From assembly GCA_021513695.1 (NCBI GenBank), contig CP084166.1, positions 192,001 through 256,000 on the forward strand: a stretch of 64,000 nt of DNA, read 5' to 3'. Of the stretch, positions 1,691 through 52,611 are shown one piece after another; positions within the stretch are counted from its first letter, which is position 1, and each line of letters begins with the position of its first letter. The translations under genes were made by a program, and so were the position numbers. Origin of the DNA: Candidatus Heimdallarchaeum aukensis (GTDB taxonomy: Archaea > Asgardarchaeota > Heimdallarchaeia > Heimdallarchaeales > Heimdallarchaeaceae). Below the pieces are notes generated by a model. It was not told the origin of the DNA. It saw only the letters and a program-made list of their open reading frames with translations, and ran no database searches.

Positions 1691-2034
1691 AATTATAGAA
1701 GCTATAAACCTACTACTTTTAAGTATTATTCTTTTTTCAGAAAGTTGTAAAAAATTGACAAATTTTTATAACTTTTTACTTTTTTAAAATAGTTTGCTAA
1801 ATAATTCCTTATTTAGTGATAAGAAGAGCAATTTCACCAAAATATCTTGGTATTTTAACTAAAAGGTATATTAAGAAAAAAGGTCAATGTTATTGTGAAA
1901 TTATTAGTGATTTTGAGAAATTAATACTTTTTCATATCTTTTTTTAAATAACTAGAAAAAATTATGCTAGAGCAAACACAATCTTTTTATTTTTTAATAC
2001 TATCTATAAATTAAAGAATTCTTGAGTGGTTAAA

Positions 2035-31159: not shown

Positions 31160-31170
31160 AAGTGTGGTAA

Positions 31171-31650
31171 TTGACAGAAGAAAATTCAAACCCTTTTTCT
31201 TTTTCTTGTTTTACAAAACCAGAACACACTGCTTTTCTTTGTTTTGGAAATTTAGATAGAAGTGATGACGCTATAGGTCTTCTTATAGCTCGAGATTTAA
31301 AAAACCTTTTTCCACACGTTTTTAGTGAAGAATTCGACGACCCCATTGGCGAACTACTAATGATTCTTGAAGATGAAAGTATAGAGTGCATAACTGTAAT
31401 TGATGCATGTGATCTAAAAGCTGAAAATGGAAGTGTAATTGTATCTTCTAATATTAAAGTTGCAGAAAGTCGTTTGAGTACACATACTATACCTATAAAG
31501 CAATTGATAGAACTGATCCACAACGAAGGAAAAGAATTTGTTTTTATTGGTGTTCAAGTTTATAATGTAGAATTTATGGGAGAAATGAGTGAAGAAGTAT
31601 TAAAAGCTAAAGAAAAAATCCTTTCTTGGTTTGTTAAAGAAAATCAATGA
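31171..31650 (+). CDS. Hydrogenase maturation endopeptidase (HycI/HoxW family)
   Basis: LCFGNLDRSDDAIGLLIA matches the GNxxxxDDGxG motif. Lies immediately downstream of the large subunit. TTG start. Confidence 0.7.
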   Translation: MTEENSNPFSFSCFTKPEHTAFLCFGNLDRSDDAIGLLIARDLKNLFPHVFSEEFDDPIGELLMILEDESIECITVIDACDLKAENGSVIVSSNIKVAESRLSTHTIPIKQLIELIHNEGKEFVFIGVQVYNVEFMGEMSEEVLKAKEKILSWFVKENQ

Positions 31651-32980
31651 GTTCTCTCATTTTTGAATAAGCATCTATTCCTTTTCTTGTAATTGAATAA
31701 TATTTTTTGTTTTTCCCTTTTATTTTTGAAGAAATCAGATTCTTTTCTTCAAGCTCATTGAGATGTTGGTATATTGATTGAAGCGATTTTCTTTTTCCTA
31801 GAGCTTTCCAGATAGCGTAACCGTGATTTGCTTTCTTTCTGGAAATCAGATCCAATATTTCAAACTTTGTTGTAGATTTTTCAGAAAGACCCCATACTGC
31901 TTTTTTAATTCCTCTTAATTTAGAAGCAAATATGTTTAACGCATTCAAGCCTGACCCAGAAAGAAGAGCAACTGTAGAATCGACGTTGATTCCTTCATTT
32001 TCTAATAATTGATTAGCAGCAACAACAACAGAAGCTGAAGCAGGTTCAATAAATAAGCCTTCTTTTTTTGCTAAAAGAAGGGCTTGATCTATCATTTTTT
32101 CTCCCTCTATTTCAATTTCTTTTCCTTTAGTTTTTAGAAGAATATCGCCGATTTTTTGAGAAAGTGTCTGAGGTGTAGGAATCTTTAGAGATTCTGCATA
32201 AAAGTCTAAATCTTCTTGTTTCAAAGACACAGCATAAAATGAGGGGATTTTTTCTATCCAACCAGATGCTAAAGCATCTTCAAAACCCCTATATATAGAA
32301 TAGAAAAGAGAGCCAGAACCTTTTGGAATAATAATATTTTCAATTGTTTCAGATAAGTGAGCGATTTCTAAACCTATAGTTTTCTGACCTTCAACAGTCA
32401 AAATATTGTCAGATGAAGCGAAAAAAACTCCACCCTTTTGTAGTTCTCTCCCCTTCTCAATTGCTTCTTCAGTAGTAGAACCATGTTCGACTACTTTACT
32501 TCCATAAACTTTCATCTGTTCAATTTTTGATAATTCTAAATTCGAAGGTACAATGTTAGTGAGTTCTAAACCTGCTAATGCAGAGTAAGCTGATAAACTT
32601 ATGCCTAAAGAACCAGAACTAGAGCACACCAGTTTAGAAATAGAGGAAGAAGAAAGATAAGAAGCAATAAGTGAAGATGCACGGTCTCTGAATGATCCAG
32701 TTGGATTTCTAAATTCAAGTTTTAGTTTTAATCCTTTTAGTGATGAAATGTTGTTAATTAATAAAATAGGTGTATTTCCTTCAGACAATGTATAAACCTT
32801 CTCTAGTGAAGGTAAAAAAGGACTGAATGACCATATATTTGATATTTTTATCTTACTTTTTTCAGGTCCTTGAATAGGGTCTATGTTTTGGATAGAACCA
32901 CAAAAAGGGCAAAGAAGATCAAAATTAATAGATAATGTATCTTTCTTACATTTGATACAATACGGTTTTTTCTTCCACAT
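31634..32980 (-). CDS. Zn-ribbon + threonine-synthase-like fold-type II PLP domain (PLP lysine replaced) + C-terminal PadR-type wHTH
   Basis: CIKC-x14-CPFC; EGNTPIL; FRNPTGSFRDRAS, where family members have NPTGSFKDRG (codon AGA at 32687..32689, verified on DNA); SSSGSLG in place of SSGNxG; C-terminal GYAIWKALGKRKSLQSIYQHLNELEEKNLISSKIKGKNKKYYSITRKGIDAY. Confidence 0.75.
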   Translation of the reverse strand: MWKKKPYCIKCKKDTLSINFDLLCPFCGSIQNIDPIQGPEKSKIKISNIWSFSPFLPSLEKVYTLSEGNTPILLINNISSLKGLKLKLEFRNPTGSFRDRASSLIASYLSSSSISKLVCSSSGSLGISLSAYSALAGLELTNIVPSNLELSKIEQMKVYGSKVVEHGSTTEEAIEKGRELQKGGVFFASSDNILTVEGQKTIGLEIAHLSETIENIIIPKGSGSLFYSIYRGFEDALASGWIEKIPSFYAVSLKQEDLDFYAESLKIPTPQTLSQKIGDILLKTKGKEIEIEGEKMIDQALLLAKKEGLFIEPASASVVVAANQLLENEGINVDSTVALLSGSGLNALNIFASKLRGIKKAVWGLSEKSTTKFEILDLISRKKANHGYAIWKALGKRKSLQSIYQHLNELEEKNLISSKIKGKNKKYYSITRKGIDAYSKMRELIDFL

Positions 32981-35161: not shown

Positions 35162-36112
35162 TTACTTTGTTAGAAACTCAAGTTTCTCGATATTAATAAA
35201 ACCAAAACTCACTAGATTTGAAAATAAAGAGAGAAAATAGGGGAAAGAAATAATTAATTCTTCATTCTTAAAAATCTCATAAATATCGTAAATCGTATGA
35301 TTAATATTTCCACAGCATTCTTTTAGCATTTTTATGAAAAGTTTGTAAACTTTAACTGGTGTCATCGGGAAAATCTCATCAAAATTTTTTTCGAATATAT
35401 CAATATTTGTTTTGTAACTGTGTGGAATAGCGATTCTAGATTGTAATAACAAATCCAACTCTAGCAATGAAATATCATCAGGGGGATTTTCAATAATTCT
35501 ATCAATGTAAGCAGGGATAAAAGCTAGTGAAAAATTGTCTAAATAAACAAGCTGTTCTATTAAATCGTTAATTTTCTTAATCCACAGTTGAGCTATTTTA
35601 GTATTTAGTGATGAATTGATGCAGATCTTAGTTTCTATGAAGTTGAGAATAGAGTATTCAACAATTTCATTGCACTGTTTATCAGTATTATTGGAATTCT
35701 CTTCAAGATAGTATATTTCTTCTCTTAATTTGTCTATTATCTTAAGAGAGTATAGGTTTACTCCTCCGTAATCAATCGTTGGGGTTAATATTTGCTGATT
35801 ATATTTTGAAATTGATGGTATTGGAATCCCGAATTCTACATCTTGTTCTCCTATTATTGAAGGTGTTTTATCAATATCCGTACGCAAAAGAACATGAGAT
35901 CTAACTGAATTGTTAGTGTCTATAAAGAGTTTTGTAGCTCTTAATGAGCTATCTCCACACTCATGTACATCTACAAGTTCAAAGATATCTTTACCTTCGT
36001 TCAAAAAAGGTAAAATCGTCTTTGGAATGAAAATTATTCTTTGTTTTTGACATGCTGTACATAAATACTCTATTGAAACTCGAGATTCAGCTCTTATTGT
36101 CAATTTCTTCAA
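35162..36112 (-). CDS. Unknown-function protein, CxxC...HxC N-terminal module; paralogue of 48127..48990
   Basis: IEYLCTACQKQRIIFIPK...DIFELVDVHECG...LFIDTNNSVRS...GIPIPS aligns by eye with IEYQCNICLKQRIMGLPE...LMDIIDVHKCK...LHVDSDLNVRT...GLPLPS of the other gene. Both have helical C-terminal halves ending in a wHTH-like LxxLVxxGxINI. Confidence 0.6.
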   Translation of the reverse strand: MKKLTIRAESRVSIEYLCTACQKQRIIFIPKTILPFLNEGKDIFELVDVHECGDSSLRATKLFIDTNNSVRSHVLLRTDIDKTPSIIGEQDVEFGIPIPSISKYNQQILTPTIDYGGVNLYSLKIIDKLREEIYYLEENSNNTDKQCNEIVEYSILNFIETKICINSSLNTKIAQLWIKKINDLIEQLVYLDNFSLAFIPAYIDRIIENPPDDISLLELDLLLQSRIAIPHSYKTNIDIFEKNFDEIFPMTPVKVYKLFIKMLKECCGNINHTIYDIYEIFKNEELIISFPYFLSLFSNLVSFGFINIEKLEFLTK

Positions 36113-36507: not shown

Positions 36508-37092
36508 GTGGTACAAATGAACTCATTGAATCAAAACATCTTTAAAATCGTACTCCTTGGAGAAGGAGCTGTAGGAAAAACCTCTTTAAAACGAACTTAT
36601 ATGGGTGAAGAATTCGTAGAAGGATATAAAATGACAGTAGGTGCTGATTTCGCAGTCAAGAAACTGGAGGTAGATTTCTACAAAATAACTTTGCAGATAT
36701 GGGATCTAGCAGGGCAACCTAGGTTTGATGCGGTAAGAGAGGCATACTATAGAGGAGCTAAAGGAGCTTTACTAGTTTTTGATATCTCTAGACCAGAAAC
36801 ATACGAAATACTACCTAAATGGCTAAATGAGTTAATAAAAAACAGTGGTGGACGAAAGGTACCAATAATTCTAATTGGAAATAAATCTGACTTGCGCGAA
36901 AAACATGATCAAACTGTTCCAATTAACTATGCTGAAGATTATGCTGAAAAGCTAACAATGTGGTCTGGATATCACGTGTCTTACGTTGAAACAAGTGCAA
37001 AAACGGGAGAAAATGTAGAAAAAGCCTTTAGTGAATTAGCTCTTCAACTTGTACGTAATTTAGAAAAATTAAAAGTTGAACTAGGGATATAA
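36508..37092 (+). CDS. Rab/Ras-like small GTPase
   Basis: G1 GEGAVGKTS, switch I TVGADF, G3 WDLAGQPRF, YYRGAKGALLVFD, G4 GNKSDL, G5 ETSAKTGENV; collinear with Rab proteins. No C-terminal Cys. Start is GTG 36508 or ATG 36517. A TATA-like TTTAATAG sits at 36471..36478. Confidence 0.9.
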   Translation: MVQMNSLNQNIFKIVLLGEGAVGKTSLKRTYMGEEFVEGYKMTVGADFAVKKLEVDFYKITLQIWDLAGQPRFDAVREAYYRGAKGALLVFDISRPETYEILPKWLNELIKNSGGRKVPIILIGNKSDLREKHDQTVPINYAEDYAEKLTMWSGYHVSYVETSAKTGENVEKAFSELALQLVRNLEKLKVELGI

Positions 37093-37096
37093 AAAA

Positions 37097-37867
37097 TTAC
37101 TTTCTAAAATATGGTATTTTTACATAAGGTAATTTAATAATAAATTTGTCTTTTGAATAAACAATTATTCCACCAAGTCCTTTAACACAATGTTCGATAA
37201 AATCTTGTTCTATTGACTTTACTTTTTCTCTTTTACCTAAAGTTTCAACCAATTTAAACTTATCATAAAGATTAATTTTAAATACAAAATCCAGCATGTT
37301 CTGCTCATTACTGTATATAATTATAATCTCTGAATTTTTTTGTTGTTGCAATAAGGATTGAAACATAAGATATTCAAATAGGATATCGAGATTTTCATCT
37401 TTAACTATACATAAATCAGCAGAACCTTCAGGAAAAATAATGTCTGGAGATTGTTTAGTATAATGAGTGAGAAGATAGTGAGAAGTTAATTCTTTTATGA
37501 ACTCATGCAAGTTAACAAATGTCTTTTTGTACAATCTTCTAGATAATAACGTTATCAACTGTCTAGTAAATTTAATTTTAAAAATACTCTCTTCTAAAAG
37601 TAGAAGTGATTCATTATTCTCAAAACTTCCTTCTTTCATTGCTGATAAAATACTTAAATTATATACTGTATGGAGAAGATTTCCCATGTCATGGGTTAAA
37701 ATTTCAACTATTTTTGTTGTTCTTTGGTTTTCAGTCTCTATTTCTCGAGTCTTAATTTTTAGATTTTTACTTAACTGATAATTCCAAAGAAATAGAGATA
37801 TGATTAATATAAGTACTAAAGCGAATATAGAGACTACAGCGATTAGAAAAATTGCATAGCTATTCAA
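37097..37867 (-). CDS. Membrane-anchored histidine-kinase-like protein with degenerate ATP-binding boxes
   Basis: One N-terminal TM (FLIAVVSIFALVLILIISLFLW). H-box-like ILTHDMGNLLHTV. The C-terminal alpha/beta region has GLGG (G2-like), but I see no clear N-box Asn or DxGxG. Its stop lies 4 nt from the GTPase stop (convergent). Confidence 0.5.
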   Translation of the reverse strand: MNSYAIFLIAVVSIFALVLILIISLFLWNYQLSKNLKIKTREIETENQRTTKIVEILTHDMGNLLHTVYNLSILSAMKEGSFENNESLLLLEESIFKIKFTRQLITLLSRRLYKKTFVNLHEFIKELTSHYLLTHYTKQSPDIIFPEGSADLCIVKDENLDILFEYLMFQSLLQQQKNSEIIIIYSNEQNMLDFVFKINLYDKFKLVETLGKREKVKSIEQDFIEHCVKGLGGIIVYSKDKFIIKLPYVKIPYFRK

Positions 37868-37953: not shown

Positions 37954-39330
37954 TTACCCTGAAACTGTAATATTGGCTATTGAAACAGCAGGAGCATCTA
38001 AAGGCCAAGGTGATTGTAGTACATCATCACCAATTGAAATAAAGTTTTCAAAGACTTGGTAATAGTTTCCTGCAATGCTTACAGATCTTAAAGGTAATGT
38101 ACGTTCTCCTTTTTCAATTAGAAAAGCGTTGTTTGAAGTTATACTGAAATCTCCTGTAATTACATTTGCTGTGAATAGTCCTATTGGTGTCTCTTCAATA
38201 TAGATTCCTTTATCTATTTCTGCTATCTGTTCTTCGAGGTTTTTCTTTACTGGTTCAACTACGAGTTTTCTAGGAGAAACACTTGGGATATTTTCGAAAG
38301 CAATTCCTCCCATCATACCTCCTCTGCTTGCATTAGCTGTTGTTTCTGTATTTGCAGCTTTAGCATACATTCTATCAAAGAGGAAAGTTTTCAAAATTCC
38401 TTTTTCGATGATTGAAGTTTTACCTACTGGGCTTCCTTCTCCGTCAATTGCTACTGTACTTTGACTTTCAGGTATTTGTCCGTCGTCAATTAAGTTGAAC
38501 CTTTCATCAGCAATCTTTTTACCTAGCTTGTCTCCTAAAGGATTCCTTTTTTCCACATATGCAGCTCCAGAGAGTGATTGCATAAATGGAACAGTAAGAA
38601 ATGCTGAAGAAGTATAAGGATGAAGTACAATAGGAAGTTTTTCACTCACATTAAAGGGTTTTGAACCTAAATGCTGAAAACCTTTTTCTACTGCTTTTTG
38701 ACCTAGTTCACTAATATCTTCATTCTTTCTACTAAGGACAAATTCAGATGCAGTTTTCCTATCTCCTTCTTTCATTACAACTGCATACGCTGATCCTCCA
38801 AAGACAGTAGATAAAGTAGAAACTAAACATCCTTCAGTAGTTCCAATAGCGTATCCTCTTACTACTTTTTCGACGTTTACAGATACACCTATGATTCTTT
38901 GATCATTTTTATCAACATTGTAAAGTAGTTCTGAAATTTTGTCTGCTAATTTCTCAGGAGTTAAATGTAAAACTTCATGGTCGAGAATACCATCTTTAGA
39001 TTGTTTACTTTCACTTACAAAACTTTCAAAAAGAGGATTTTTTGGGCTAGCTTTAGCAATAGCATAAGCTTTTCTTAAAGCTTCCTTGATTGATTTTTCA
39101 GAAAAACCAGTACAAGAGGAGAAACCTAGTTGTTTTCCTATTGCAACTCGAATTCCTACCCCCTGAACTACACCATCTCTACTGTCTACTTTACCTTTGT
39201 TTTCGCTTAAACTGGTCTCTAACGAATTATAAACAAAAGCTTCAGCAGACGGAATGTTAAGATCTCTAGCATATTTAATCGTAGTATCGGCAATATTCAA
39301 TATTTTTTCTCGTATTTCATTCAGTTCCAT
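37954..39330 (-). CDS. pmbA: PmbA/TldE-family protein (partner of the TldD metalloprotease)
   Basis: TldD/PmbA-family architecture, 458 aa, no HExxxH. Its ATG overlaps the tldD stop (TAATG). Confidence 0.8.
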   Translation of the reverse strand: MELNEIREKILNIADTTIKYARDLNIPSAEAFVYNSLETSLSENKGKVDSRDGVVQGVGIRVAIGKQLGFSSCTGFSEKSIKEALRKAYAIAKASPKNPLFESFVSESKQSKDGILDHEVLHLTPEKLADKISELLYNVDKNDQRIIGVSVNVEKVVRGYAIGTTEGCLVSTLSTVFGGSAYAVVMKEGDRKTASEFVLSRKNEDISELGQKAVEKGFQHLGSKPFNVSEKLPIVLHPYTSSAFLTVPFMQSLSGAAYVEKRNPLGDKLGKKIADERFNLIDDGQIPESQSTVAIDGEGSPVGKTSIIEKGILKTFLFDRMYAKAANTETTANASRGGMMGGIAFENIPSVSPRKLVVEPVKKNLEEQIAEIDKGIYIEETPIGLFTANVITGDFSITSNNAFLIEKGERTLPLRSVSIAGNYYQVFENFISIGDDVLQSPWPLDAPAVSIANITVSG

Positions 39331-40781
39331 TATTTTGCACCTCCAACTAAAACTTCATCTACAAGTAACTCTGCACCCCCAAGTCCAACAGGTAATGGAA
39401 ATTGTCCACCTTTACCACATCCACCAAAATAACCAGTCATAATGTTGAAATCTTTGGTTACTCCTTGAACTTGTTTGATTAATTCTAAGATATTTCCTGA
39501 AAGTGATGCATCTCTTACAGCATACTTTATCTCTCCATTTTCAACCCAATAACCTCTATTGCAATTGAATAGAAAGTTTCCATCTAAACCCACTTGACCA
39601 CCTGATGAAGAAACTGCATAAAAACCATCTTTAAGCTGTTCTAGAGCTTCCTCTAGACTTAAGTCTCCAGGAGCAAAGTAAGTATTTTTCATTCGTGGGA
39701 TAGGTGGATACATAAAGGTGATAGCTCTTGAATTTCCTGTTGGTTCAGCATTCATCTTTTTAGCTGTTCCTCTGTTATGTAAGTATCCTTTCAATACTCC
39801 TTTCTCTAAAAGAACAGTTTTGTCAGTTTTAATTCCTTGGTCATCATAAGGAAGCCACAGACCATTTGTTTCTCTTGGGATTGTTCCTTCATCGATAATT
39901 GTTGCCATTTCAGTACCTAAAACTTCGCCTATTTTATCAGATAATGGAGACATTCCAGTTACAACAAAATCACTTTCAGATAAATGTCCAAAGGATTCGT
40001 GAGCCAATACTCCTCCTAATCTCCATCCAATAAGGGCTTTCTGTTTTCCCGCTTTAATTGGCTTTGCTTCAGTTTGCTCTTTGCAATATTTTCCAGCATT
40101 GGTTCCAATTGTTTCAGGAAGATATTTCTCTTTTTCAAAAACTTCTAAACCAAGTGAAGAACCAATTCCATCAATACCCATAGCTCTTTTTCCTTCAATC
40201 ATGGATATAGCTTGTATTCGAAGGTCAACTATCAAAGGTTGCCAGAAGATTTCACTTTCTTCAGAATTCACAAAATATTTGTCTCCATATAGTTCTCCGT
40301 ATAACCCTGTTGTACTACTCGGTTGAATGTGATTTTCAATAGCTTTTACTCCCCGTTTTAACATGGATAATTTTTCATCAAACTCTACATTCTTAGGGTG
40401 CTTCTTTACCTCTGTAAATTGTTTATCAACAATAGGATTCTGTGTTTCAAATTCCATTTTGACTTTATTTCTAGGAGCTGTTGCTTTAGCTATCTTGACT
40501 GCATTTTCAACTGTCTGAAGAATACTTTCCCAGTTTCTCTCTGGAGTGAAAGAAAAACCAGGAGAACCATCGAAATAAGCCATTATTCCAAAACCTTTTC
40601 TTAATTTAGTAGAAGCCTCTCTAATTCTTTCGTTGAGCAGATTAACTGTCATTAAGCTCATATCATCGTATCTAGCCTCAACAAAATCTGCTCCTAAATC
40701 TAATCCTTTATTTACTGCTTTATGTAGTAAATCAAAAATATATTCGTCTATAGCCTTCATCTCGAAAACAACATTGCTCAA
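39330..40781 (-). CDS. tldD: TldD-family metalloprotease
   Basis: AHESFGHLSE (HExxxH), the Gly-rich C-terminus GGCGKGGQFPLPVGLGG, and 483 aa. Confidence 0.85.
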   Translation of the reverse strand: MSNVVFEMKAIDEYIFDLLHKAVNKGLDLGADFVEARYDDMSLMTVNLLNERIREASTKLRKGFGIMAYFDGSPGFSFTPERNWESILQTVENAVKIAKATAPRNKVKMEFETQNPIVDKQFTEVKKHPKNVEFDEKLSMLKRGVKAIENHIQPSSTTGLYGELYGDKYFVNSEESEIFWQPLIVDLRIQAISMIEGKRAMGIDGIGSSLGLEVFEKEKYLPETIGTNAGKYCKEQTEAKPIKAGKQKALIGWRLGGVLAHESFGHLSESDFVVTGMSPLSDKIGEVLGTEMATIIDEGTIPRETNGLWLPYDDQGIKTDKTVLLEKGVLKGYLHNRGTAKKMNAEPTGNSRAITFMYPPIPRMKNTYFAPGDLSLEEALEQLKDGFYAVSSSGGQVGLDGNFLFNCNRGYWVENGEIKYAVRDASLSGNILELIKQVQGVTKDFNIMTGYFGGCGKGGQFPLPVGLGGAELLVDEVLVGGAK

Positions 40782-40885: not shown

Positions 40886-42922
40886 TTACTCAAAATAAAC
40901 TTCTTTGATCTTTGTATCAATATATTCTTTTATTTCTTCATATTCCAATATATCTTCATGAGGATACTCTAATAGCTTTTTTTCAATCAAGACGGCTATT
41001 TCTTCAGTCTTTTTCTTTAGTGCATACGAAAAACGGTCTACGAATAAAGCAATTGTAAATTCACTTTTTCCTAATAAAAGCATTATATATTCAGAGTGTT
41101 CCAAAATTCTTAGCTCTCCTTTCTTTAGTTTTAGAGTTTTGCTTATATTTTTTATAGCATTAATCATTCCAACAATAAGCAACTCATCAGAATGGAAAAT
41201 ATCTCCATAAGAGTAACTATAGAAAGGAACATTTTCAACAATTAATAAGAAATGAAAAAGATGGAAGTTATTTCTACTGCTTCTAATCTCTGAAGTGAGT
41301 AATCCCTTTGTAGTGTATTGTTTTATTAGATTATCTATTTCTAAAGAAAAATCCATAGAAAAGGGAGTTTGTTCGAATTCTGAGTTTGCTTTTGCCTTCT
41401 TTAGTAGTTGATAGATTTGTCTAATATTCTCTTCTTTATAATTTAAATTATGCTTTTTACATATTATTTCCACTCTTTTTAGCAAATCTTCTGAAAGGTG
41501 AAGTTTGTTTGTATATATGTAAACTGTTGCTAATAGCAACATATAATTTACTAATTGATAAAAGGCATTAAGTTCTTTCAATAGAATAATTATTTCTTGA
41601 GAATATAACTCGATTTCCTCTAATATTTTTTGCTTATTAATTTTATTAGTCTCGATTTTAAACATTACAAGATATAATTCAATCAAGTAAAGAAGAGCAT
41701 TTAATGCTTGGGGAAAAAGGTTCAATTCTCTGGCATAATTTATTCCTTTTAGTAAATAATCTCTGGATGAATAGTAATTCATTTTATAAAATTCAAAAAT
41801 GCCTTTAGTTGTAATATAGGTAGTATAATAAGCGTTAAGTTTAGGCTCATCTAATTTAAATGTCTTTGAATATTTTTCTAAATACAATCCTGCTTTATCA
41901 AAATTGTTAGATATAGCGTATGTCTCTGCTGCTAAAGGATAAATATAATCAAGAGCAATATTGTATTGTTCACTAATTTTAATAGCCTGTTCTAGAAATT
42001 TAAGGGATTCAGGAATGTTATTTAACAGTCTGTAAGCATAGATTATTTCTGCATTTATCATGGCTATATTTCTTAATTCTTTCTTTTTTTCCATAAAAAT
42101 AAGAATGTTAAATAAGTGTTTTAAACCCTCTTTGAAAAATCCTTGTTTGAGCAAAACTACTGCATAATTTGCTTTAGCAACTATTTTTCCTCTTTCAATT
42201 TTTTCAGAACTGAATAATTTAATTGCCTCTGCATAGGCAACCTTACTTTCTATTATTGATCCAGAATAAAGAAGGCAATTTCCTTGCATATTTAGTAAAT
42301 ATGCGTGCAAGTAAACATCTGAAATATCATGTTTTAGGATTTTTTGTAATGCTTTCTCTGAAATGTAAATTCCTTTAATATATTGATGTTTCATGTAGTT
42401 GAACAAGGTTTCTGTATAAAGATACATTATTTCGTAAAATCTACAAAGTTTTTTATCTTTTTCAAATTCACTAACTTGGTCCAATATCTCTAATGCTTTA
42501 TTCAAATATTCTTCTGCTTGCTCAAGTTCGTTTATAACAGAATAGTATTCTACTACATGAAGAAAAAAATCAAAAAGATAGATAATTTGAGTATTGATTT
42601 TACCTTTATCCAGTTTTTCTATTATTTCTTCGATTTTTGGATAATCTCCTTGTATTGCTACAATACGCGAAAAAGAAGCAAAAATTTCAAAAGATTTAAA
42701 CTTCAGATAAAACTCTGATAATTTTTCTCTATCATCATAAATTAATAGAATTTTAGCAATTAAAGCTTGATAATCTGAAGGAACTGAAGAAGATAGAATT
42801 TCATCCCAATACTTTAGGATTGTATTGTAGAAATCAAAATAAGTGTTAAACAACTTTGGATGCATTTTTCCATGTAAGAAATCTTCTTCTAAAAACCTCT
42901 CATATCGCTTTATTTGCATCAT
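40886..42922 (-). CDS. TPR-repeat protein with C-terminal longin/roadblock-like domain (paralogue 1)
   Basis: 678 aa. LGN-like TPRs (LLNMQGNCLLYSGSIIESKVAYAEAIKLF ...). C-terminal about 128 aa (40889..41272): HLFHFLLIVENVPFYSYSY / DELLIVGMINAIKNISKTL / GELRILEHSEYIMLLLGKSEFTIALFVD / FSYALKKKTEEIAVLIEKKL, a beta-beta-alpha-beta-beta-beta-alpha pattern. Confidence 0.65.
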   Translation of the reverse strand: MMQIKRYERFLEEDFLHGKMHPKLFNTYFDFYNTILKYWDEILSSSVPSDYQALIAKILLIYDDREKLSEFYLKFKSFEIFASFSRIVAIQGDYPKIEEIIEKLDKGKINTQIIYLFDFFLHVVEYYSVINELEQAEEYLNKALEILDQVSEFEKDKKLCRFYEIMYLYTETLFNYMKHQYIKGIYISEKALQKILKHDISDVYLHAYLLNMQGNCLLYSGSIIESKVAYAEAIKLFSSEKIERGKIVAKANYAVVLLKQGFFKEGLKHLFNILIFMEKKKELRNIAMINAEIIYAYRLLNNIPESLKFLEQAIKISEQYNIALDYIYPLAAETYAISNNFDKAGLYLEKYSKTFKLDEPKLNAYYTTYITTKGIFEFYKMNYYSSRDYLLKGINYARELNLFPQALNALLYLIELYLVMFKIETNKINKQKILEEIELYSQEIIILLKELNAFYQLVNYMLLLATVYIYTNKLHLSEDLLKRVEIICKKHNLNYKEENIRQIYQLLKKAKANSEFEQTPFSMDFSLEIDNLIKQYTTKGLLTSEIRSSRNNFHLFHFLLIVENVPFYSYSYGDIFHSDELLIVGMINAIKNISKTLKLKKGELRILEHSEYIMLLLGKSEFTIALFVDRFSYALKKKTEEIAVLIEKKLLEYPHEDILEYEEIKEYIDTKIKEVYFE

Positions 42923-43046
42923 TTTATTTCATTATTACTTTATCATAGTATATCTCAAGAGTCGTTAAAAGTTTATCTGATTTTCAAAAATTGATTGATT
43001 CTCGGCGACTCAAAAATAATAAAATAGCTAGAGTTCAAAAGAATAA

Positions 43047-45095
43047 CTACTTTTCAAATATTTCAATTCTTAAATTATCTATTTCTTGTTTTATAGGAGT
43101 TAAAATCTTATTGGTAAAATAGTCAATCTGCAAAACTTCTGTTTGTTGCAATAAACTCTCAATTTTGTTAGCAAATTGAATCAAACGTTCTTTTACAGAA
43201 TAATAGAACTCATCAATGAAGAGAACAACTGAATATTTCTTTCGTTTTTCAATCATTACTATAAAATCAGTAAACTCGATAAGCTTAAAGATTCCATGTT
43301 TTTTTGTCAGAGAGTCACTGAACGATTCAATAGCTTTGAATAATCCAGATAGAAGAAGTTGTTTTTCTTCAATTTTTTCTCCTTTAAATTGATGTGAATA
43401 TAATGGTAAACCGTTAAAGTGAATAATTATTAGATTTATTAGGTGATCTTTGTTATATAAATTGAGGTTTACTTCTATGTTCCTAATTTCTGTAGAAGGT
43501 TTCTGTAATGTTTTTGTTATACTATTCAAACTGAATATTTGAAGAGCTTTATCATCTAACTTTTCAGGATTCTGTTCCATTTTTTTCAGTGTTTGCATTT
43601 CACGTAAAATTTCTTTAAGTTGAGTATTCATATTGTAGTTTTTACATAACTCTACAGTTAAAGAGTAAATATGGTTCGCAAGATCGAATTTCTCCTGAAG
43701 TGCATAAATCCTAGCTAAAAGTAATTGAAAATCTATTTTTAAGTAAATGTTGCTGTGTTTTCGTAATATTAGGGATATCTCTTCGCAAATTTCCTCTAAT
43801 TCACTTATAATTTCTTCAGAATACTGTATTTGTAATTTCTTAATCAAGTAAATTGAATGATATTTCAGTCCAGTTAGATAAAGGGGAAAATTTTTGATAC
43901 TTTTAGCTATTTCTATTCCTTTTTCCAGGAAAATAGATGCATTGTATAAATTTCCTCTTATTAATTCGTAATATCCCTTTAAAGAATAAAATGCACCATT
44001 ATGGAAACTGATGTTTTCTTTATCTTTTAAGATAATATTTTCAAATGTTTTCAAAAGTTTTTCAACAATATCAAATTTTTGAATTTGTATTGCGAACTCG
44101 ATTGATGATATTAATACTTCGTCGTCATAGACTAATCTTGTTTCTAAGAGTTTTATATTTTCTTTAAGATATTCTACTGCTTTTTCTGTTTTACCAATTT
44201 CTATTAGGCATTGCATAATCTCTCTATTTATTAAAGCTACATTTCTCAACTCATTGTTTTCAGAGAAAAATTCTTTGATTTTTATTAACTTAGGTAGAGC
44301 TTCTTTATGTTTTCCGAGTTTGATATCTAAAGAAGCTATATTTCCTTCTGTTACAATTTTTCCTCGATTATTATTCATTTCATTAAACAAATTAAATGAT
44401 TTATAGTAATTTGACTTCGATTGTTTAAGCAACCCTTTAAACATGTAAGCGTTACCTAGAGTGTTGTAAGTAACTGCTAAAAGAAATTCATCTGTTTTTT
44501 CAATATTTTCTAATATTTTTTTGGCTTCACTAAAGTAAAAAATAGCTTTATCTGACTCTCGATATCTAAAAACAGTGAAACCCAGAGTATAGAATAAATT
44601 TGCTTGAAGAAAAAGAAACAATTGACCTTCACTCTTATTTAAGAGAAGTTTGCATTGTGAAATTAGCTGAGAAGCTAATTCATTATTGAAAGTTGTAGCA
44701 AATATTTTTATTTCAGAGTTGTAGAAGTAAAATCTAGGAAAAATTGAAGATTTAGAAATAGATGCTAGATCAGTTTCTGCAATATATGTTTGTGCTTTAA
44801 TTAATCCTCTTTTTAATCGTAATATGTTGAGTAAAGGGCCTAAAGTTTCGATTGAATTATATTTTTTATAAAGAAATTCTAATTTATCATATTCTCCATA
44901 CATATTAAACAAATAACTAATTAAAAATTGAACATCAGGGGGTATGAAAATGTCTCTTATCTTTTTCCAATAATTTTGAACATTTCTGTAAAGATTAAAC
45001 TCTTTCACTTCTGTTATAGTTTTTAACTTTAGATATTTTTTTATCCAATTTTGATCATCAGAGTTTAATAACTGTAAATACCAATCCAAAACCAT
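43047..45095 (-). CDS. TPR-repeat protein with C-terminal longin/roadblock-like domain (paralogue 2)
   Basis: 682 aa. TYNTLGNAYMFKGLLKQSKSNYYKSFNLF-type TPRs. C-terminal (43050..43448): LINLIIIHFNGLPLYSHQF / KQLLLSGLFKAIESFSDSL / GIFKLIEFTDFIVMIEKRKKYSVVLFID / FYYSVKERLIQFANKIESLL. Starts 9 nt after the Grx-FTR gene stop. Confidence 0.65.
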   Translation of the reverse strand: MVLDWYLQLLNSDDQNWIKKYLKLKTITEVKEFNLYRNVQNYWKKIRDIFIPPDVQFLISYLFNMYGEYDKLEFLYKKYNSIETLGPLLNILRLKRGLIKAQTYIAETDLASISKSSIFPRFYFYNSEIKIFATTFNNELASQLISQCKLLLNKSEGQLFLFLQANLFYTLGFTVFRYRESDKAIFYFSEAKKILENIEKTDEFLLAVTYNTLGNAYMFKGLLKQSKSNYYKSFNLFNEMNNNRGKIVTEGNIASLDIKLGKHKEALPKLIKIKEFFSENNELRNVALINREIMQCLIEIGKTEKAVEYLKENIKLLETRLVYDDEVLISSIEFAIQIQKFDIVEKLLKTFENIILKDKENISFHNGAFYSLKGYYELIRGNLYNASIFLEKGIEIAKSIKNFPLYLTGLKYHSIYLIKKLQIQYSEEIISELEEICEEISLILRKHSNIYLKIDFQLLLARIYALQEKFDLANHIYSLTVELCKNYNMNTQLKEILREMQTLKKMEQNPEKLDDKALQIFSLNSITKTLQKPSTEIRNIEVNLNLYNKDHLINLIIIHFNGLPLYSHQFKGEKIEEKQLLLSGLFKAIESFSDSLTKKHGIFKLIEFTDFIVMIEKRKKYSVVLFIDEFYYSVKERLIQFANKIESLLQQTEVLQIDYFTNKILTPIKQEIDNLRIEIFEK

Positions 45096-45104
45096 ATTTT
45101 TCCC

Positions 45105-45800
45105 CTAAGTATATCTATCTTTAGGTCTCCTTTCTGGTATCATTTCAATTTCTTGATTTTTTGTGAAATCATAATCTTTCTTAAAGAATAGAGCACAATA
45201 GCATCTTCCATATTCATTGATATCTTCTTCTGCATAATCACAAGGACAACAAATATCTCTATCAAGCTGAATATTTTCGTTTGTATCTCGACAAGGACAA
45301 TTAAAATAACCTATTCTATTATAATTATCTTTTAGTCCTTGTATTAACATGTCTAAAGTTCCATCGTTATTTGGATGTAACTTCCAATTCTTCTTTTTAG
45401 CTATATTCTGAACATATTTCTTTACTTCTTCAAAAGTTTTTGACTTTTTACTTCTTCCAATACCATGAAAGAGTTTCTCCCATTTCTTTTTGTTAAATCC
45501 CATTTCATATTTTTCTCCGTCAATAACTACGAATGGAAAAGCTATAAACTCCAAATTAAAAGCATGTCTTATTTCTTTTTTGATCTCTTTTTTTTCATTA
45601 TAGTTTATTAGATCTATATCGATAAAATAGTAAGAAATTTTATTATCTTTTAGCCAATTTTTACTTTTTTTACACCATTGACATGTAGAGATAGCAAAGA
45701 GAAAAACTTCAAAATCAGTTGTTGAATCTTCAAATAGCTCTAAATTATAGTTTGGCAAACTCTTAATTTTTTTTGCTATCTTTAAGTTTAGTTTCTCCAT
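45105..45800 (-). CDS. Glutaredoxin/NrdH-like domain fused to a ferredoxin:thioredoxin reductase catalytic-subunit-like domain
   Basis: N-terminal VFLFAISTCQWCKKSKNWL (CxxC in a thioredoxin-fold context). C-terminal CPCR ... CCPC ... GRCYCALF corresponds to the FTR-c CPC / CPC / CHC cysteine pattern, with Tyr in place of His. Confidence 0.65.
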   Translation of the reverse strand: MEKLNLKIAKKIKSLPNYNLELFEDSTTDFEVFLFAISTCQWCKKSKNWLKDNKISYYFIDIDLINYNEKKEIKKEIRHAFNLEFIAFPFVVIDGEKYEMGFNKKKWEKLFHGIGRSKKSKTFEEVKKYVQNIAKKKNWKLHPNNDGTLDMLIQGLKDNYNRIGYFNCPCRDTNENIQLDRDICCPCDYAEEDINEYGRCYCALFFKKDYDFTKNQEIEMIPERRPKDRYT

Positions 45801-45875: not shown

Positions 45876-46427
45876 TTATAAAGTATTTAAAAAGGCTATT
45901 TCATTGAAATTCTTTCTTGGAGGTCTATTTTTTTCAGAGTTTGCATCCTTTTCTGATAATACTTCAGTATAATTCTCATTATGTCTTCCCACTATAATTA
46001 ATGTAATAATTCTGTATTCTTGGGGAATATTCAATACATTTTTAGCTTCTTCTTCGTTAAACCCAGCTATTGGATGGGCAACAAGTCCCATTTCTGTTAA
46101 ACGTAGGATAATATTTGCTGTTGCCATTCCTGTATCAAAAAGATAGTATTCTCTTCCTTTAACTATACAATCTAAATCTGGTTTAGAGAAAACAGCAATT
46201 ACCATTGAAGCTTTTTTCGCCCAAGCATTTGCTTCAGATAAAGTAGAAAAGATTTTTTCCAGATTTTCTTTCCCGTAAACAAAGACAAATCTCCAAGGTT
46301 GTTTGTTAAAACAAGAAGGAGCTAAACTTGCTAATTCAACCAATTCCTTTATCATTTCTTCTTTTACTTCAAAGGGAAGTAATGATCTGTATGCTCTCCT
46401 TTTATTAACTATTTCATAAAAATTCAT
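45876..46427 (-). CDS. Nitroreductase-family flavoprotein
   Basis: FYEIVNKRRAYRS, PSCFNKQPWRF, and 183 aa. Its ATG directly abuts the bcp stop. Confidence 0.75.
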   Translation of the reverse strand: MNFYEIVNKRRAYRSLLPFEVKEEMIKELVELASLAPSCFNKQPWRFVFVYGKENLEKIFSTLSEANAWAKKASMVIAVFSKPDLDCIVKGREYYLFDTGMATANIILRLTEMGLVAHPIAGFNEEEAKNVLNIPQEYRIITLIIVGRHNENYTEVLSEKDANSEKNRPPRKNFNEIAFLNTL

Positions 46428-46904
46428 TTAATCACCTTTTATATTTAAAATTGTAGACAAAACATCCATAGAATGCTCTTTAACTTTTACTTTTTCCCAT
46501 ATCTTAGCAACTTTTCCTTCAGGAGAAATAAGGAAGGTCTTTCTAGCTGTACCAAAAAACTTCTTCGGTCCCATTTTCTTCTTAACCCAACAACCATAAG
46601 CTTCAATTATTTCATGGTTTTCATCGCTTAGTAAAATTACTTTTAGATCCTTTTTCTCTTCAAATTTCTTAAGTTTACTAATTGGGTCATTACTTATCCC
46701 AAAAATTATGGCATCTCTTTTCTTGAATTCTTCAATTTGTTCAGAGAATGTTTTTGCTTCAATTGTACATCCTGGAGTATTTGCTCTGGGGTAAAAATAA
46801 ACTACAACCCATTTTCCTAAATAGTCTTTTAGACAATGTTCTTTCCCATTTTGGTCCTTTAGACAAAAATCAATGGCTTTATCACCAACTTTTAAATTTG
46901 ACAT
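46428..46904 (-). CDS. bcp: Peroxiredoxin, Bcp type
   Basis: WVVVYFYPRANTPGCTIEAKTF (peroxidatic Cys motif PxxxTxxC), and 158 aa. Confidence 0.85.
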   Translation of the reverse strand: MSNLKVGDKAIDFCLKDQNGKEHCLKDYLGKWVVVYFYPRANTPGCTIEAKTFSEQIEEFKKRDAIIFGISNDPISKLKKFEEKKDLKVILLSDENHEIIEAYGCWVKKKMGPKKFFGTARKTFLISPEGKVAKIWEKVKVKEHSMDVLSTILNIKGD

Positions 46905-48126: not shown

Positions 48127-48990
48127 TTATTTTTTATCTACAAAATTTATGGTTAAGATATTAATTATACCTTTTTCAACTAAATTAGCTAAGATTGCGA
48201 TATATTCACTAAAAGAAAAATTATACTTTAGTTCATTGTATATTAGTAATATGTTGTTTTTATCATTGTTTTTACACTTTTCAATAATAGAAGCTAGATT
48301 TCGACTTTCAACAGTATCAAGGTCATTAAAAATCTCTCCAAATTCAGTGTCTTCTTTTATAGTTTGAGGAATTGAGCAAATACTATTTATTATTAATTCA
48401 AGAGCAAGTTTATCGCTCAAGTTCATCTCGTTCGTTACCTTATCATCTAAAAATTTTAGTACAAGTTCTAAAGCTTTGACATCAATATAGGTTGCTTTAG
48501 AGTAAGCTTCTTCAATTCCAGTTAACCATTTTTTAACTTGTTTTTTCTGAACTTCTTTTTCTGTTAATATTTGAATTTCAAGGAATTGGTCATCAATAAT
48601 TATTTTATCTAAGTCGTTTTTTTTAGTTTGATCAAAAACAAATATCTTATTTCTAATTTTATCGTTTATTTGGAAATAATCAATGTTTCTGATTCTAATA
48701 AGATGATCAGTAATGATTTCAATTTTCGATCTCTCTACTTTTTGAGGAGAAGGAAGAGGAAGTCCAGGAATACTAGATTCATCATTTTCCTTTTTTACTG
48801 GAATCTGTGTCCTTACATTTAAATCAGAATCCACATGAAGTAGAATAGCATTTTCCTTATTACCTTTGCATTTGTGAACATCAATAATATCCATTAAACC
48901 TCTCGTATCTACATTAAAATTTATATTTTCAGGAAGACCCATTATTCTTTGTTTTAAGCAGATGTTACATTGATATTCTATCTTCTTCAT
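48127..48990 (-). CDS. Unknown-function protein, CxxC...HxC N-terminal module; paralogue of 35162..36112
   Basis: See 35162..36112. 287 aa: MKKIEYQCNICLKQRIMGLPENINFNVDTRGLMDIIDVHKCKGN..., with C-terminal EYIAILANLVEKGIINILTINF. Confidence 0.6.
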   Translation of the reverse strand: MKKIEYQCNICLKQRIMGLPENINFNVDTRGLMDIIDVHKCKGNKENAILLHVDSDLNVRTQIPVKKENDESSIPGLPLPSPQKVERSKIEIITDHLIRIRNIDYFQINDKIRNKIFVFDQTKKNDLDKIIIDDQFLEIQILTEKEVQKKQVKKWLTGIEEAYSKATYIDVKALELVLKFLDDKVTNEMNLSDKLALELIINSICSIPQTIKEDTEFGEIFNDLDTVESRNLASIIEKCKNNDKNNILLIYNELKYNFSFSEYIAILANLVEKGIINILTINFVDKK

Positions 48991-50259: not shown

Positions 50260-50730
50260 TTACTCTCCAAGAATTTTTGTTTTAAGATTAGCCATTTCAA
50301 TTGCTGAAAGAGCAGCATCTACTCCTTTATTTCCCATTTTTGTTCCTGCTCGCTCTATTGCTTGTTCTAGTGTATCAGTTGTTAATATTCCGTAACTTAT
50401 TGGTACATCTAGGTTCAATGATGCTTTAGCAACTCCTTTTGATACTTCACTGGCTACGTAATCAAAATGTGGCGTTGCACCTCTAATAACTGCCCCCAGA
50501 GCTATTATTGCATCATATTTTTTCTTTTCGCCCATTATTTTGAGAGTATAAGGTATTTCAAAAGCTCCTGGAGTCCATACTACATCTATATCTTCATTCT
50601 CGACTTCATGTCGTATTAATGTATCTATGGCTCCTTTTAGCAATTTACTTGTAATTAGTTCATTAAACCTACTTACAACTATTCCGATCTTTAAATTTTT
50701 TCCTGTTTGTTTTCCTTCAAAAATTTTCAT
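50260..50730 (-). CDS. ribH: 6,7-dimethyl-8-ribityllumazine synthase
   Basis: [22 protein letters not shown] ... [10 protein letters not shown] ... [16 protein letters not shown]; 156 aa. Confidence 0.95.
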
Positions 50731-50741
50731 TTATACTCCTC

Positions 50742-51944
50742 TCAATTATCGATAATATTCAACAAATGACCCAATTTCTCTTGTTTCGCTTTTAAGTAAG
50801 CATAATTTTGTATATTAGGATCCATTCTCAAAGGTATTCTCTGTGCTATTTTTATGTTGTATTTCTCAAGTTTTTTTATTTTATCAGGATTGTTTGTTAA
50901 TATTCTGATCTCGTTTATTCCTAAATCTTTCAAAATATCCGCAGCTATCTTATAATCTCGCAAATCTGCAGGAAAACCTAATTTTAGATTTGCATCGAAA
51001 GTATCATATCCACACTCTTGAAGTTTGTAAGCTTTCAATTTATTTAATAAACCAATTCCTCTTCCTTCTTGTCTTAAATAGAGTAGTACTCCCGTTCCTT
51101 CCTCTGCTATCATTTCCATAGATTTCTCAAGTTGCGAACCACAATCACATTTTAATGATTTTAAAACATCACCTGTAAGACATTCAGAATGTAATCGGAT
51201 CAATATTGACTGATTTTCTTTTATTTCTCCTTTAATTAAAGCAATATGTTCTAATCCATTATACTTGTCGCTATAACCTATAATCTTGAATGTTCCAAAT
51301 TTTGTAGGTATATTTGTTTCTACTACACGTTCAACAAAGCTCTCATTTTTTAATCTATATTCAATCAATGAAGATATTGTTATAATTTTCAATCCATATC
51401 TTTGAGCAAAAGAGAGTAACTCTGGAACTCTTGCCATGTGTCCATCATCTTTTATTATTTCGCAAATAACAGCTGCGGGAAAAGCATTACAGATTTTTGC
51501 TAAATCAACAGATGCTTCTGTATGTCCCTCTCTTTTTAGAACTCCTCCTTCTACAGCAATTAAAGGAAAAATGTGTCCGGGTCGTCTGAAATCTTCTGCT
51601 TTTTTAGTACGGTCTGTAATGTCACGAACAGTTTTTGCACGTTCATAAGCAGAAATTCCTGTAGTACAATCAATACTGTCAATCGATACCGTAAAAGCAG
51701 TTTGGTTGGGATCATTATTCTTTGTAACCATAAGAGACAAGTTTAACTCTCTTGCTCTTTCAGAAGTAATGGGCACACAGACCAACCCTCGAGCAAAACG
51801 GATCATAAAATTAATTGTATCTGGTGTGATTCTATCGGCTAAAGCTACAAGATCTCCCTCATTCTCTCTCTCTTCATTATCAATTACAATGATACATTTT
51901 CCTTCTTTTAAATCTTTTATGGCTTCTTCTATTGAATTAAACAT
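50742..51944 (-). CDS. ribBA: Bifunctional 3,4-dihydroxy-2-butanone-4-phosphate synthase / GTP cyclohydrolase II
   Basis: [20 protein letters not shown] and [10 protein letters not shown] (DHBP synthase). [23 protein letters not shown] and [14 protein letters not shown] (GCH II). Confidence 0.95.
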
Positions 51945-51954
51945 TTAACCACTC

Positions 51955-52611
51955 CTAAAAACTATGTTCAAACAAAAATTCTTTTGAAAGAATGATTGAT
52001 TGCCTTTTCTCCTCATTGAACTTTTGCAGCAAATGTTCAACATATTTTGATAATATGTCGCACTCGATATTAACTACAGAACCTATCGAATATTTTCTCA
52101 TGATAGTATTTTCCAAAGTATGAGGAATAATAGAGACAGTAAAGCTACTAGAATTTTTATAGACACCGACAACAGTCAAACTTACACCATCAATAGCAAT
52201 CGAACCCTTTGGAACAATATAATTTAGAAGAAATGAACGAGTTTTTATTCTAAAAATTATTGAATTTTGTTTTGTTTCTTTCTTAACTATTTCTCCCATG
52301 GCATCAACATGCCCTTGTACAAAGTGGCCGTTTAATCGATCTTGTAACTTCAAAGCTCTCTCAAGATTAACAAATGAACCTCTCTGAAGAAATTTTAGAT
52401 TTGTTCGTTCTAATGTTTCTGGCATCATATCAGCTGTAAAGGCTGTACTAGTAAAACCAGTAACTGTTAAACATACTCCATTAACAGAAATACTTTCTCC
52501 AATACGTATATCTTGTAAAACTGTTCTAGCCTTTATCTCAATTTTACACTGGCTTCTTGACCTATTTAGATGATTAACTAAACCTATTTCTTCAATAATT
52601 CCTGTAAACAT
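51955..52611 (-). CDS. ribE: Riboflavin synthase, bacterial/eukaryotic alpha-chain type
   Basis: MFTGIIEEIG, GESISVNGVCLTV, repeated GSIAIDGVSLTV, NGHFVQGHVD; 218 aa. Confidence 0.95.
   Translation of the reverse strand: MFTGIIEEIGLVNHLNRSRSQCKIEIKARTVLQDIRIGESISVNGVCLTVTGFTSTAFTADMMPETLERTNLKFLQRGSFVNLERALKLQDRLNGHFVQGHVDAMGEIVKKETKQNSIIFRIKTRSFLLNYIVPKGSIAIDGVSLTVVGVYKNSSSFTVSIIPHTLENTIMRKYSIGSVVNIECDILSKYVEHLLQKFNEEKRQSIILSKEFLFEHSF

Follow-up and report, generated by a model that had tools for sequence, protein, structure and literature searches.

Within a 64,000-nucleotide stretch of the Candidatus Heimdallarchaeum aukensis genome (assembly GCA_021513695.1, contig CP084166.1, positions 192,001 to 256,000 of the forward strand; hereafter 'the window'), two adjacent genes, called P2 (upstream) and P1 (downstream), encode proteins in which a tetratricopeptide repeat (TPR) array is followed by a single predicted longin domain resembling those of Mon1 and Bet5. 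This TPR solenoid and longin architecture was found to be Asgard-wide and well populated, and is recorded neither in Pfam nor in database names. The reading favoured here (with a probability of roughly 0.55) is that P1 and P2 are old paralogues whose longin domains would form a heterodimer held on TPR solenoids, serving as a platform for some small GTPase; by analogy with known longin systems, P1 and P2 could plausibly take part in GTPase control. Of the new leads, the most useful is that longin-bearing genes recur in pairs. Longin and roadblock modules are a common platform of small-GTPase control in eukaryotes (TRAPP, Mon1-Ccz1, Ragulator, folliculin, GATOR1), and the family bears on how this machinery arose from Asgard archaea.

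Architecture and predicted fold of P1 and P2

An earlier sequence-only reading of this DNA had described two co-directional open reading frames (ORFs) of 678 and 682 amino acids (aa) with three regions in common. Both ORFs were recovered on the minus strand (Table 1), and all peptide strings quoted from them were present in the translations. The two products are full-length paralogues, as the common regions had indicated, with 25% identity over ~660 aligned residues (BLASTP, E=3e-46), a similarity that this E-value places well past chance. The nearest database proteins came from Candidatus Heimdallarchaeaceae and Ca. Heimdallarchaeum endolithica; orthologues within the Heimdallarchaeaceae were 99% and 82% identical to P2, and 97% and 87% identical to P1 (including Ca. 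H. endolithica K9W46_00800). In a neighbour-joining tree P2 grouped with the family protein P0010 (35% identity) and P1 fell in a separate clade, and at least a third paralogue, P0014, was present in Ca. H. endolithica (at 3.18 Mb, locus L007).

Both proteins end in an alpha/beta domain of ~130 aa. An alignment of 71 such C-terminal domains from the family (A4, from which the family hidden Markov model (HMM) was also built) was used as input for AlphaFold2 and gave a model with a predicted local distance difference test score (pLDDT) of 87.2 and a predicted template modelling score (pTM) of 0.83, all five models having a pLDDT of 82-87. In the model, strands were assigned by DSSP to positions 8-15, 20-25, 59-63, 68-73 and 77-83, and helices to positions 32-52, 88-108 and 118-137, corresponding to a five-stranded antiparallel sheet in the order beta1-beta2-alpha1-beta3-beta4-beta5-alpha2-alpha3, which is the longin order. 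The order strand-strand-helix-strand-strand-strand-helix that had been read from the sequence agreed with this model, which has one extra C-terminal helix. A longin/roadblock-like fold had also been predicted, and the structure prediction and Foldseek comparison bore it out: the top 50 matches in the PDB were all roadblock or longin domains (Fuzzy query TM-score 0.61 over 137 columns). Structural comparison scores were 12.2 for MglB and Mon1, 12.1 for synbindin, Bet5 and an MK-D1 roadblock, 11.7 for HPS4, and 11.5 for a Lokiarchaeota longin domain and Ccz1, with 118-130 aligned residues for longins and ~100 for roadblocks. The hundreds of structural matches belonged to one superfamily, and the resemblance of the model to solved longin domains was significant in structure. 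On this model, the assignment of the C-terminal domain to the longin/roadblock-superfamily fold is sound.

In sequence, the longin domain of P1 matched the family HMM with E=1e-30 (profile positions 6-129) and aligned throughout with that of P2. Links to known families came through relatives: Fuz_longin_1 was matched by 15 of 80 full-length relatives (Pfam), and among the 71 isolated domains Fuz_longin_1 was matched by 28 (E<=0.1, best E=1e-6), Intu_longin_1 by eight, Sybindin by five and Robl_LC7 by four. When a core profile was compared with the PDB, 14 matches were obtained at E values up to 10, all but two of them longin or roadblock chains, led by Bet5 (E=0.006), Roadblock3 of MK-D1 (0.017) and MON1A (0.034). 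By way of these relatives, the first longin domain of Mon1/Fuz/HPS1 and TRAPP Bet5 appear nearest in sequence to the domain of P1 and P2.

The array ahead of the longin domain had been described as LGN-style, which proved right as to repeat type. Matches to TPR_12, TPR_1, TPR_8 and TPR_MalT were found at ~aa 130-320 in both proteins (Pfam); for TPR_12, P2 scored above the cut-off of 30.1 bits (36.5) and P1 below it (25.4). In P2 the repeats can be recognised from sequence at ~aa 165-320, and we infer that the remainder of its array consists of divergent repeats. The best solved relatives of P2 (phmmer against the PDB) were LGN/GPSM2 and Pins, and a profile built from 16 full-length family sequences (A7) matched GPSM2 with E=5e-18, followed by Pins, kinesin light chains, Rap phosphatases and designed TPR/PPR proteins, the matches spanning profile positions ~86-420. 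The likeness to LGN/GPSM2-Pins and kinesin light chain (E=5e-18 to 1e-12) lies in the repeat type only and lends no support to orthology; the GoLoco motifs of LGN/Pins and the heptad-repeat regions of kinesin light chain are absent from P1 and P2. For the conserved N-terminal region (~aa 1-120), a Pfam search with P2 gave no match; Y36, W43, I46, P52, D54, Q56, L58, I59, Y66, K71 and L72 were invariant columns of alignment A1.

The TPR-longin family and its recurrent gene pairs

The family was detected through exhaustive HMMER searching only (1.84 billion cluster representatives, E<=1e-3), by which 111 clusters at 50% identity were retrieved. Word-indexed searches with full-length P1 or P2 returned near-identical Heimdallarchaeaceae proteins only, and with the domain alignment three proteins. 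Members are soluble proteins, mostly 600-750 aa long, and the family HMM found a single longin domain per protein, located C-terminally; in nearly all cases only a few residues separate it from the end of the chain. Since TPR_12 was matched in 51 and TPR_MalT in 44 of 80 relatives, the combination of TPR array and C-terminal longin domain is the rule. Ten proteins of deviating architecture were also looked at: some were short (315-385 aa) or long (~940 aa), and in two the longin domain was internal. All members with a source name were from Asgard archaea (Heimdallarchaeota/-aceae, Hodarchaeales/-ota, Hermodarchaeota, Promethearchaeota, Baldrarchaeia, Thorarchaeota and Ca. Harpocratesius); as many members from metagenomes are without a name, a range beyond Asgard is possible. 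Database labels were 'tetratricopeptide repeat protein', 'MalT-like TPR region domain-containing protein' or 'hypothetical'.

Conservation within the longin domain (P2 numbering, n=71) was concentrated in the beta1-beta2 hairpin (G562 in 66, P564 in 54, Y566 in 52 and F570 in 51 sequences) and in helix alpha1 (L581 in 62, G584 in 66, A588 in 66, I589 in 51 and F592 in 53). The most conserved residues thus include a glycine and an alanine at i/i+4 on alpha1; nearly invariant and small, G584 and A588 would suit tight helix-helix packing. Deviations from the consensus are G562N, F592I and E616L in P1, and D578K and H608F in P2. The two proteins lose different consensus residues, as expected for non-equivalent subunits.

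Gene neighbourhoods were compared in 20 loci, of which ~16 were independent of the window, with ~269 kb of independent flank; a 13-sequence subset contributed seven genome loci and two short metagenome loci. Of the ~15 loci with usable flanks, seven had another gene encoding this longin domain no more than 5 kb from a family member (Table 1). At L009 a P2-like gene comes directly after an asparaginase gene and is itself succeeded by a P1-like one, whose product is 36% identical to P1 (E=6e-108). The shorter longin proteins of 227-379 aa (L003, L018, L019 and L020) may be dedicated partner subunits, and the 68-aa ORF at L004 is probably what is left of a former tandem paralogue. The recurrence of such pairs suggests that longin-longin dimers are formed.

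Relation to known longin systems and a putative heterodimer

Longin and roadblock domains form homo- or heterodimers in Mon1-Ccz1, TRAPP Bet5-Trs23, FLCN-FNIP2, NPRL2-NPRL3, C9orf72-SMCR8, the LAMTORs and MglB2. In the mechanism we favour, the longin domains of P1 and P2 would pair as a heterodimer in the manner of Mon1-Ccz1, Bet5-Trs23, FLCN-FNIP and MglB2, through the beta1-beta2 hairpin (G-x-P-x-Y-S) and helix alpha1 (L..G...AI..F). The dimer would be a platform that binds one of the small GTPases of the organism, probably through the joined sheet and the one-helix face, and would act as exchange factor, GTPase-activating protein (GAP) or effector, with the TPR solenoids recruiting further partners. 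The conserved signature is open to mutation, and the two-gene arrangement makes the heterodimer idea testable.

Among known systems, the family nearest in sequence is the first longin domain (LD1; Fuz_longin_1, PF19036, and Intu_longin_1, PF19031) found in tri-longin exchange factors for Rab GTPases (Mon1-Ccz1, Fuzzy-Inturned and HPS1-HPS4). MON1A and the TPR-longin family have a hairpin motif, sG-x-P-x-YS, and the alpha1 motif G...A..SF in common, and the tri-longin factors act as pairs, just as TPR-longin genes often come in twos. Tri-longin factors, however, carry three consecutive longin domains per chain, whereas P1 and P2 have one, placed C-terminally behind an array of ~400 aa. The TRAPP subunits Bet5/TRAPPC1 and Trs23/TRAPPC4 (Sybindin) are small stand-alone proteins located between Bet3-family subunits, in contrast to the TPR-fused longin domains of P1 and P2, and no Bet3/TRAPPC3-like gene was found near P1 and P2. 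As for the roadblock/LC7 proteins (MglB, LAMTOR, and the Asgard roadblocks of MK-D1, Thor and Odin), the P1/P2 domain is modelled as longin-type with two C-terminal helices, and the model has no roadblock-type N-terminal helix before beta1, although the modelled segment begins seven residues before beta1 and the linker could donate such a helix. With its modelled longin topology, the domain is probably no canonical roadblock.

A GP motif before beta2 has been tied to GAP-type longins, together with an arginine finger and a DENN- or NPRL2-type downstream domain (PMC12290439). The GAP longins of FLCN, NPRL2 and SMCR8-C9orf72 and the 'GP-motif' Asgard longins of the same paper have this GP motif, whereas the TPR-longin family has G-x-P like Mon1 (with Asn for Gly in P1); FLCN/NPRL2-type GAPs continue into a DENN or NPRL2-type domain, whereas P1 and P2 end with the longin domain. 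Structural scores of FLCN/NPRL2/SMCR8-type longins were below those of Mon1 and TRAPP longins. With one longin domain, P1 and P2 are outside the tri-longin class, and as they lack both the GP motif and a downstream domain they are not FLCN/NPRL2-class GAPs either; judged by the motif, the G-x-P hairpin resembles that of Mon1, an exchange factor, more than the GAP-linked GP motif. A more specific proposal is that, among prokaryotic proteins, the TPR-longin family stands nearest to the catalytic LD1 module of the tri-longin factors and that its adjacent gene pairs, here P2/P1, encode a heterodimeric exchange factor that activates an Asgard Rab-like GTPase through its longin-longin interface. We hold this to be distinctly unlikely; if true, the principle of a two-subunit longin exchange factor would predate eukaryotes.

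Several points weigh against the favoured reading of a longin heterodimer serving a small GTPase. In none of the ten variant architectures did Pfam reveal a fused GTPase or DENN domain, and GTPases were not enriched near family members, with one GTPase in the independent flank. Longin domains also serve GTPase-unrelated roles, as in SNAREs and in the sigma and mu subunits of adaptors. Tandem duplication alone can explain adjacent paralogues, and L009 partly keeps the surrounding gene order (asparaginase, HlyIII) and is not fully independent of the window. In sequence, the isolated C-termini of P1 and P2 gave no longin match in Pfam even at E<=10, the family consensus matched Fuz_longin_1 (E=3e-5) with 24.5 bits, under the gathering score of 26.1 bits, and the sequence matches in the PDB were each marginal (E=0.006-1). 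P1 and P2 are outside direct longin Pfam membership, being too divergent.

The lack of a Pfam match and the marginal PDB E-values, together with a poor earlier AlphaFold2 model from four sequences (pLDDT 53.6), would be in line with a C-terminal domain that is not a true longin, the model being an artefact and the sequence matches due to chance. That explanation is extremely improbable: the models from 71 sequences all reached the pLDDT range given above, the structural matches fell in a single superfamily, the HMM matches of 28 relatives independently gave the same family, and even the four-sequence model had the same order of secondary-structure elements.

A competing explanation is that P1 and P2 are TPR scaffolds in which the longin domain is merely a dimerisation or partner-binding module without a GTPase role, for example in a proteostasis or signalling complex. 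This would fit the missing genomic link to GTPases across loci, dimerisation would suffice to explain the recurrent gene pairs, and the proteins with the best TPR matches (LGN, kinesin light chain and Rap phosphatases) are peptide-binding scaffolds. However, the closest families (Fuz_longin_1, Intu_longin_1, Sybindin and Robl_LC7) are all GTPase-binding modules, and no member had the SNARE-type Longin or Clat_adaptor_s models among its top families, which leaves a GTPase-free scaffold rather unlikely.

That the architecture does not correspond to a described family, as had been remarked, held in the literature searched and in the databases, which give TPR or hypothetical names only. Roadblock and longin proteins are known to be numerous in Asgard genomes. 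The Roadblock/LC7 superfamily has been divided into 130 Asgard clusters of orthologous genes (asCOGs), with many Asgard-only multidomain architectures (10.1101/2020.10.19.343400), and TPR repeats are among the extra domains of ESCRT-related proteins (Vps28-C/steadiness-box types), some of which also have a longin domain (PMC10936438). No account of a TPR array with a single C-terminal Mon1/Bet5-like longin domain was found in a literature search that did not extend to the asCOG tables.

Gene neighbourhood and other features of the window

The window has a G+C content of ~30%. On the minus strand the genes around the pair are ordered peroxiredoxin, nitroreductase, Grx-FTR, P2, P1, TldD, PmbA and a 256-aa membrane protein (Table 1).

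Table 1. Positions of the genes, domains and spacers at the P1/P2 locus, and of longin-bearing partner genes at other loci of the family
Feature	Locus	Position	Strand	Remarks
P2 gene	Window	43047-45095	minus	ORF, 682 aa; upstream tandem member; N-terminal helical region, TPR array and C-terminal longin domain
P2 N-terminal conserved region	Window	44736-45095	minus	~aa 1-120; YW..I....P.D.Q.LI block, common to P1
P2 TPR/helical-repeat array	Window	43506-44735	minus	~aa 121-530
P2 longin domain	Window	43050-43445	minus	~aa 551-682
P2-P1 spacer, 124 nt	Window	42923-43046	minus	T-rich runs past P2 stop codon; AT-rich ahead of P1 start codon
P1 gene	Window	40886-42922	minus	ORF, 678 aa; architecture as P2; downstream tandem member
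P1 longin domain	Window	40889-41263	minus	~aa 554-678
Peroxiredoxin (AhpC/Redoxin) gene	Window	46428-46904	minus	
Nitroreductase gene	Window	45876-46427	minus	Abuts peroxiredoxin gene at 46427/46428
Glutaredoxin and ferredoxin-thioredoxin-reductase catalytic-chain (beta) fusion (Grx-FTR)	Window	45105-45800	minus	
Grx-FTR-P2 spacer, 9 nt	Window	45096-45104	minus	GGGAAAAAT (sequence read)
TldD gene	Window	39330-40781	minus	Directly downstream of P1
PmbA gene	Window	37954-39330	minus	Start codon shares one base (39330) with TldD stop codon
256-aa membrane protein	Window	37097-37867	minus	One N-terminal membrane helix
Ras/Rab-type GTPase	Window	36508-37092	opposite to P1	Pfam Ras E=1e-48
Full-length tandem pairs	Window/L001, L009, L006			Paralogues only 25-32% identical
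L018 partner	L018	12285-13205		306 aa, 178 nt downstream; longin domain mid-protein (ORF residues 101-212)
L019 partner	L019	12256-12939		227 aa, convergent; weak partial match, E=5e-6
L020 partner	L020	7771-8871		366 aa, 1.1 kb upstream
L003 partner	L003	3359-4498		379 aa, 3.8 kb upstream
L004 ORF	L004	11600-11803	plus	68 aa, beta4-alpha2 part of longin, E=1e-5; 1.2 kb downstream of family member

The sequence-only reading had called a Rab-like GTPase at 36508-37092, correctly so in view of its Pfam match, and had proposed P1 and P2 as dedicated regulators, exchange factors or GAPs, or as effectors of it. The GTPase is a true Ras/Rab-type protein 3.8 kb from P1, regulation of small GTPases is common among longin domains, and the arrangement is retained in L001. 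It is, however, encoded on the opposite strand with three genes (TldD, PmbA and the membrane protein) in between, and L001 says little on the matter, since it comes from a close relative (proteins 82-87% identical) in which gene order matches the window across the whole region. When the 20 loci were scanned by phmmer with the window GTPase and for P-loop/NKxD motifs, with which Pfam tables of the called genes agreed, a small GTPase was found near a family member in L001 and L017 only. In L017, from a Heimdallarchaeota genome, a Ras/Roc-type GTPase (1342-1860, plus strand) lies 8.1 kb from the family member with eleven unrelated genes between them, and it is the sole small GTPase in the ~16 independent loci. 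The conserved co-occurrence with small GTPases that would be expected of dedicated partners was thus not seen, and adjacency was confined to L001. The P-loop of the L017 GTPase, GEGAVGKT, is the same as that of the window GTPase.

The genome of the Asgard archaeon MK-D1 measures ~4.4 Mb. It holds 74 small-GTPase-related genes, and its small-GTPase genes are generally outside operons with roadblock or longin genes (PMC10933270). A background density of ~1 GTPase per 60 kb, a rough figure taken from this different organism, corresponds to a ~20% chance of a GTPase within 5 kb of a 4-kb gene pair, which could account for the adjacency in the window. Taken together, a dedicated pairing of P1/P2 with the GTPase at 36508-37092 is quite improbable. 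As Asgard GTPases reportedly do not, in general, share operons with roadblock or longin genes (PMC10933270), the absent linkage counts against this particular pairing and not against a GTPase role in general; GTPase adjacency in these genomes should not serve as a basis for assigning partners. The 316-aa gene at 35162-36112 (minus strand), which is divergent from the GTPase gene with a spacer of 395 nt, is a candidate GTPase partner no worse than P1 and P2.

The 9-nt gap between Grx-FTR and P2 that had been taken as a hint of redox input was present, and the same spacing was repeated in L001. The spacer GGGAAAAAT could, from its sequence, have room for a GGGG-type putative ribosome-binding site, and the spacing makes co-transcription of Grx-FTR and P2 likely within this genus only. 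P2, and perhaps P1, might accordingly be read as part of a redox-stress operon controlled by, or acting on, thiol redox state, with peroxiredoxin, nitroreductase, Grx-FTR and P2 as four tightly packed same-strand genes of which P2 is the last, a layout also found in L001. Against this, redox genes were beside a family member in no locus other than the window and L001, the L009 tandem pair having no peroxiredoxin, nitroreductase or Grx-FTR genes alongside, so that the 9-nt coupling is confined to the genus; the longin-domain alignment of the family (n=71) moreover contained no conserved cysteines. The suggested redox input found no support, and membership in a redox operon is very improbable. 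In an all-against-all comparison of neighbours, none was conserved with the window beyond closely related genomes, the immediate neighbours being unrelated metabolic enzymes. A functional link of TldD/PmbA to P1 and P2 was considered and dropped, the pair being present only in the window and L001.

Some further features were observed in these regions. In L020, which is from Ca. Harpocratesius sp., the TPR-longin gene is preceded at a distance of 3.7 kb by a gene for a stand-alone Robl_LC7 protein of 151 aa (5894-6349, plus strand). The gene of the 256-aa membrane protein and the GTPase gene converge, with their ends 4 nt apart; the membrane protein holds 'EILTHDMGNLLH', which resembles a histidine-kinase H-box, but no kinase domain was found in it by Pfam. 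The 316-aa protein mentioned above has a paralogue of 287 aa (48127-48990, minus strand; phmmer E ~1e-20) on the other flank. Both share an N-terminal C-x-x-C ... DVH-x-C motif, are kept in L001 and gave no significant Pfam match (DUF7505 at E=0.09 only). Elsewhere in the window, a [NiFe]-hydrogenase large subunit and, after it, a HycI-type maturation protease are encoded at 29876-31650 (plus strand), and a pyridoxal phosphate (PLP)-dependent enzyme with a fused C-terminal PadR-type winged helix at 31634-32980 (minus strand). Genes for riboflavin biosynthesis form a cluster (50260-52611, minus strand) that encodes lumazine synthase, a fusion of DHBP synthase with GTP cyclohydrolase II, and a riboflavin synthase carrying two lumazine-binding domains.

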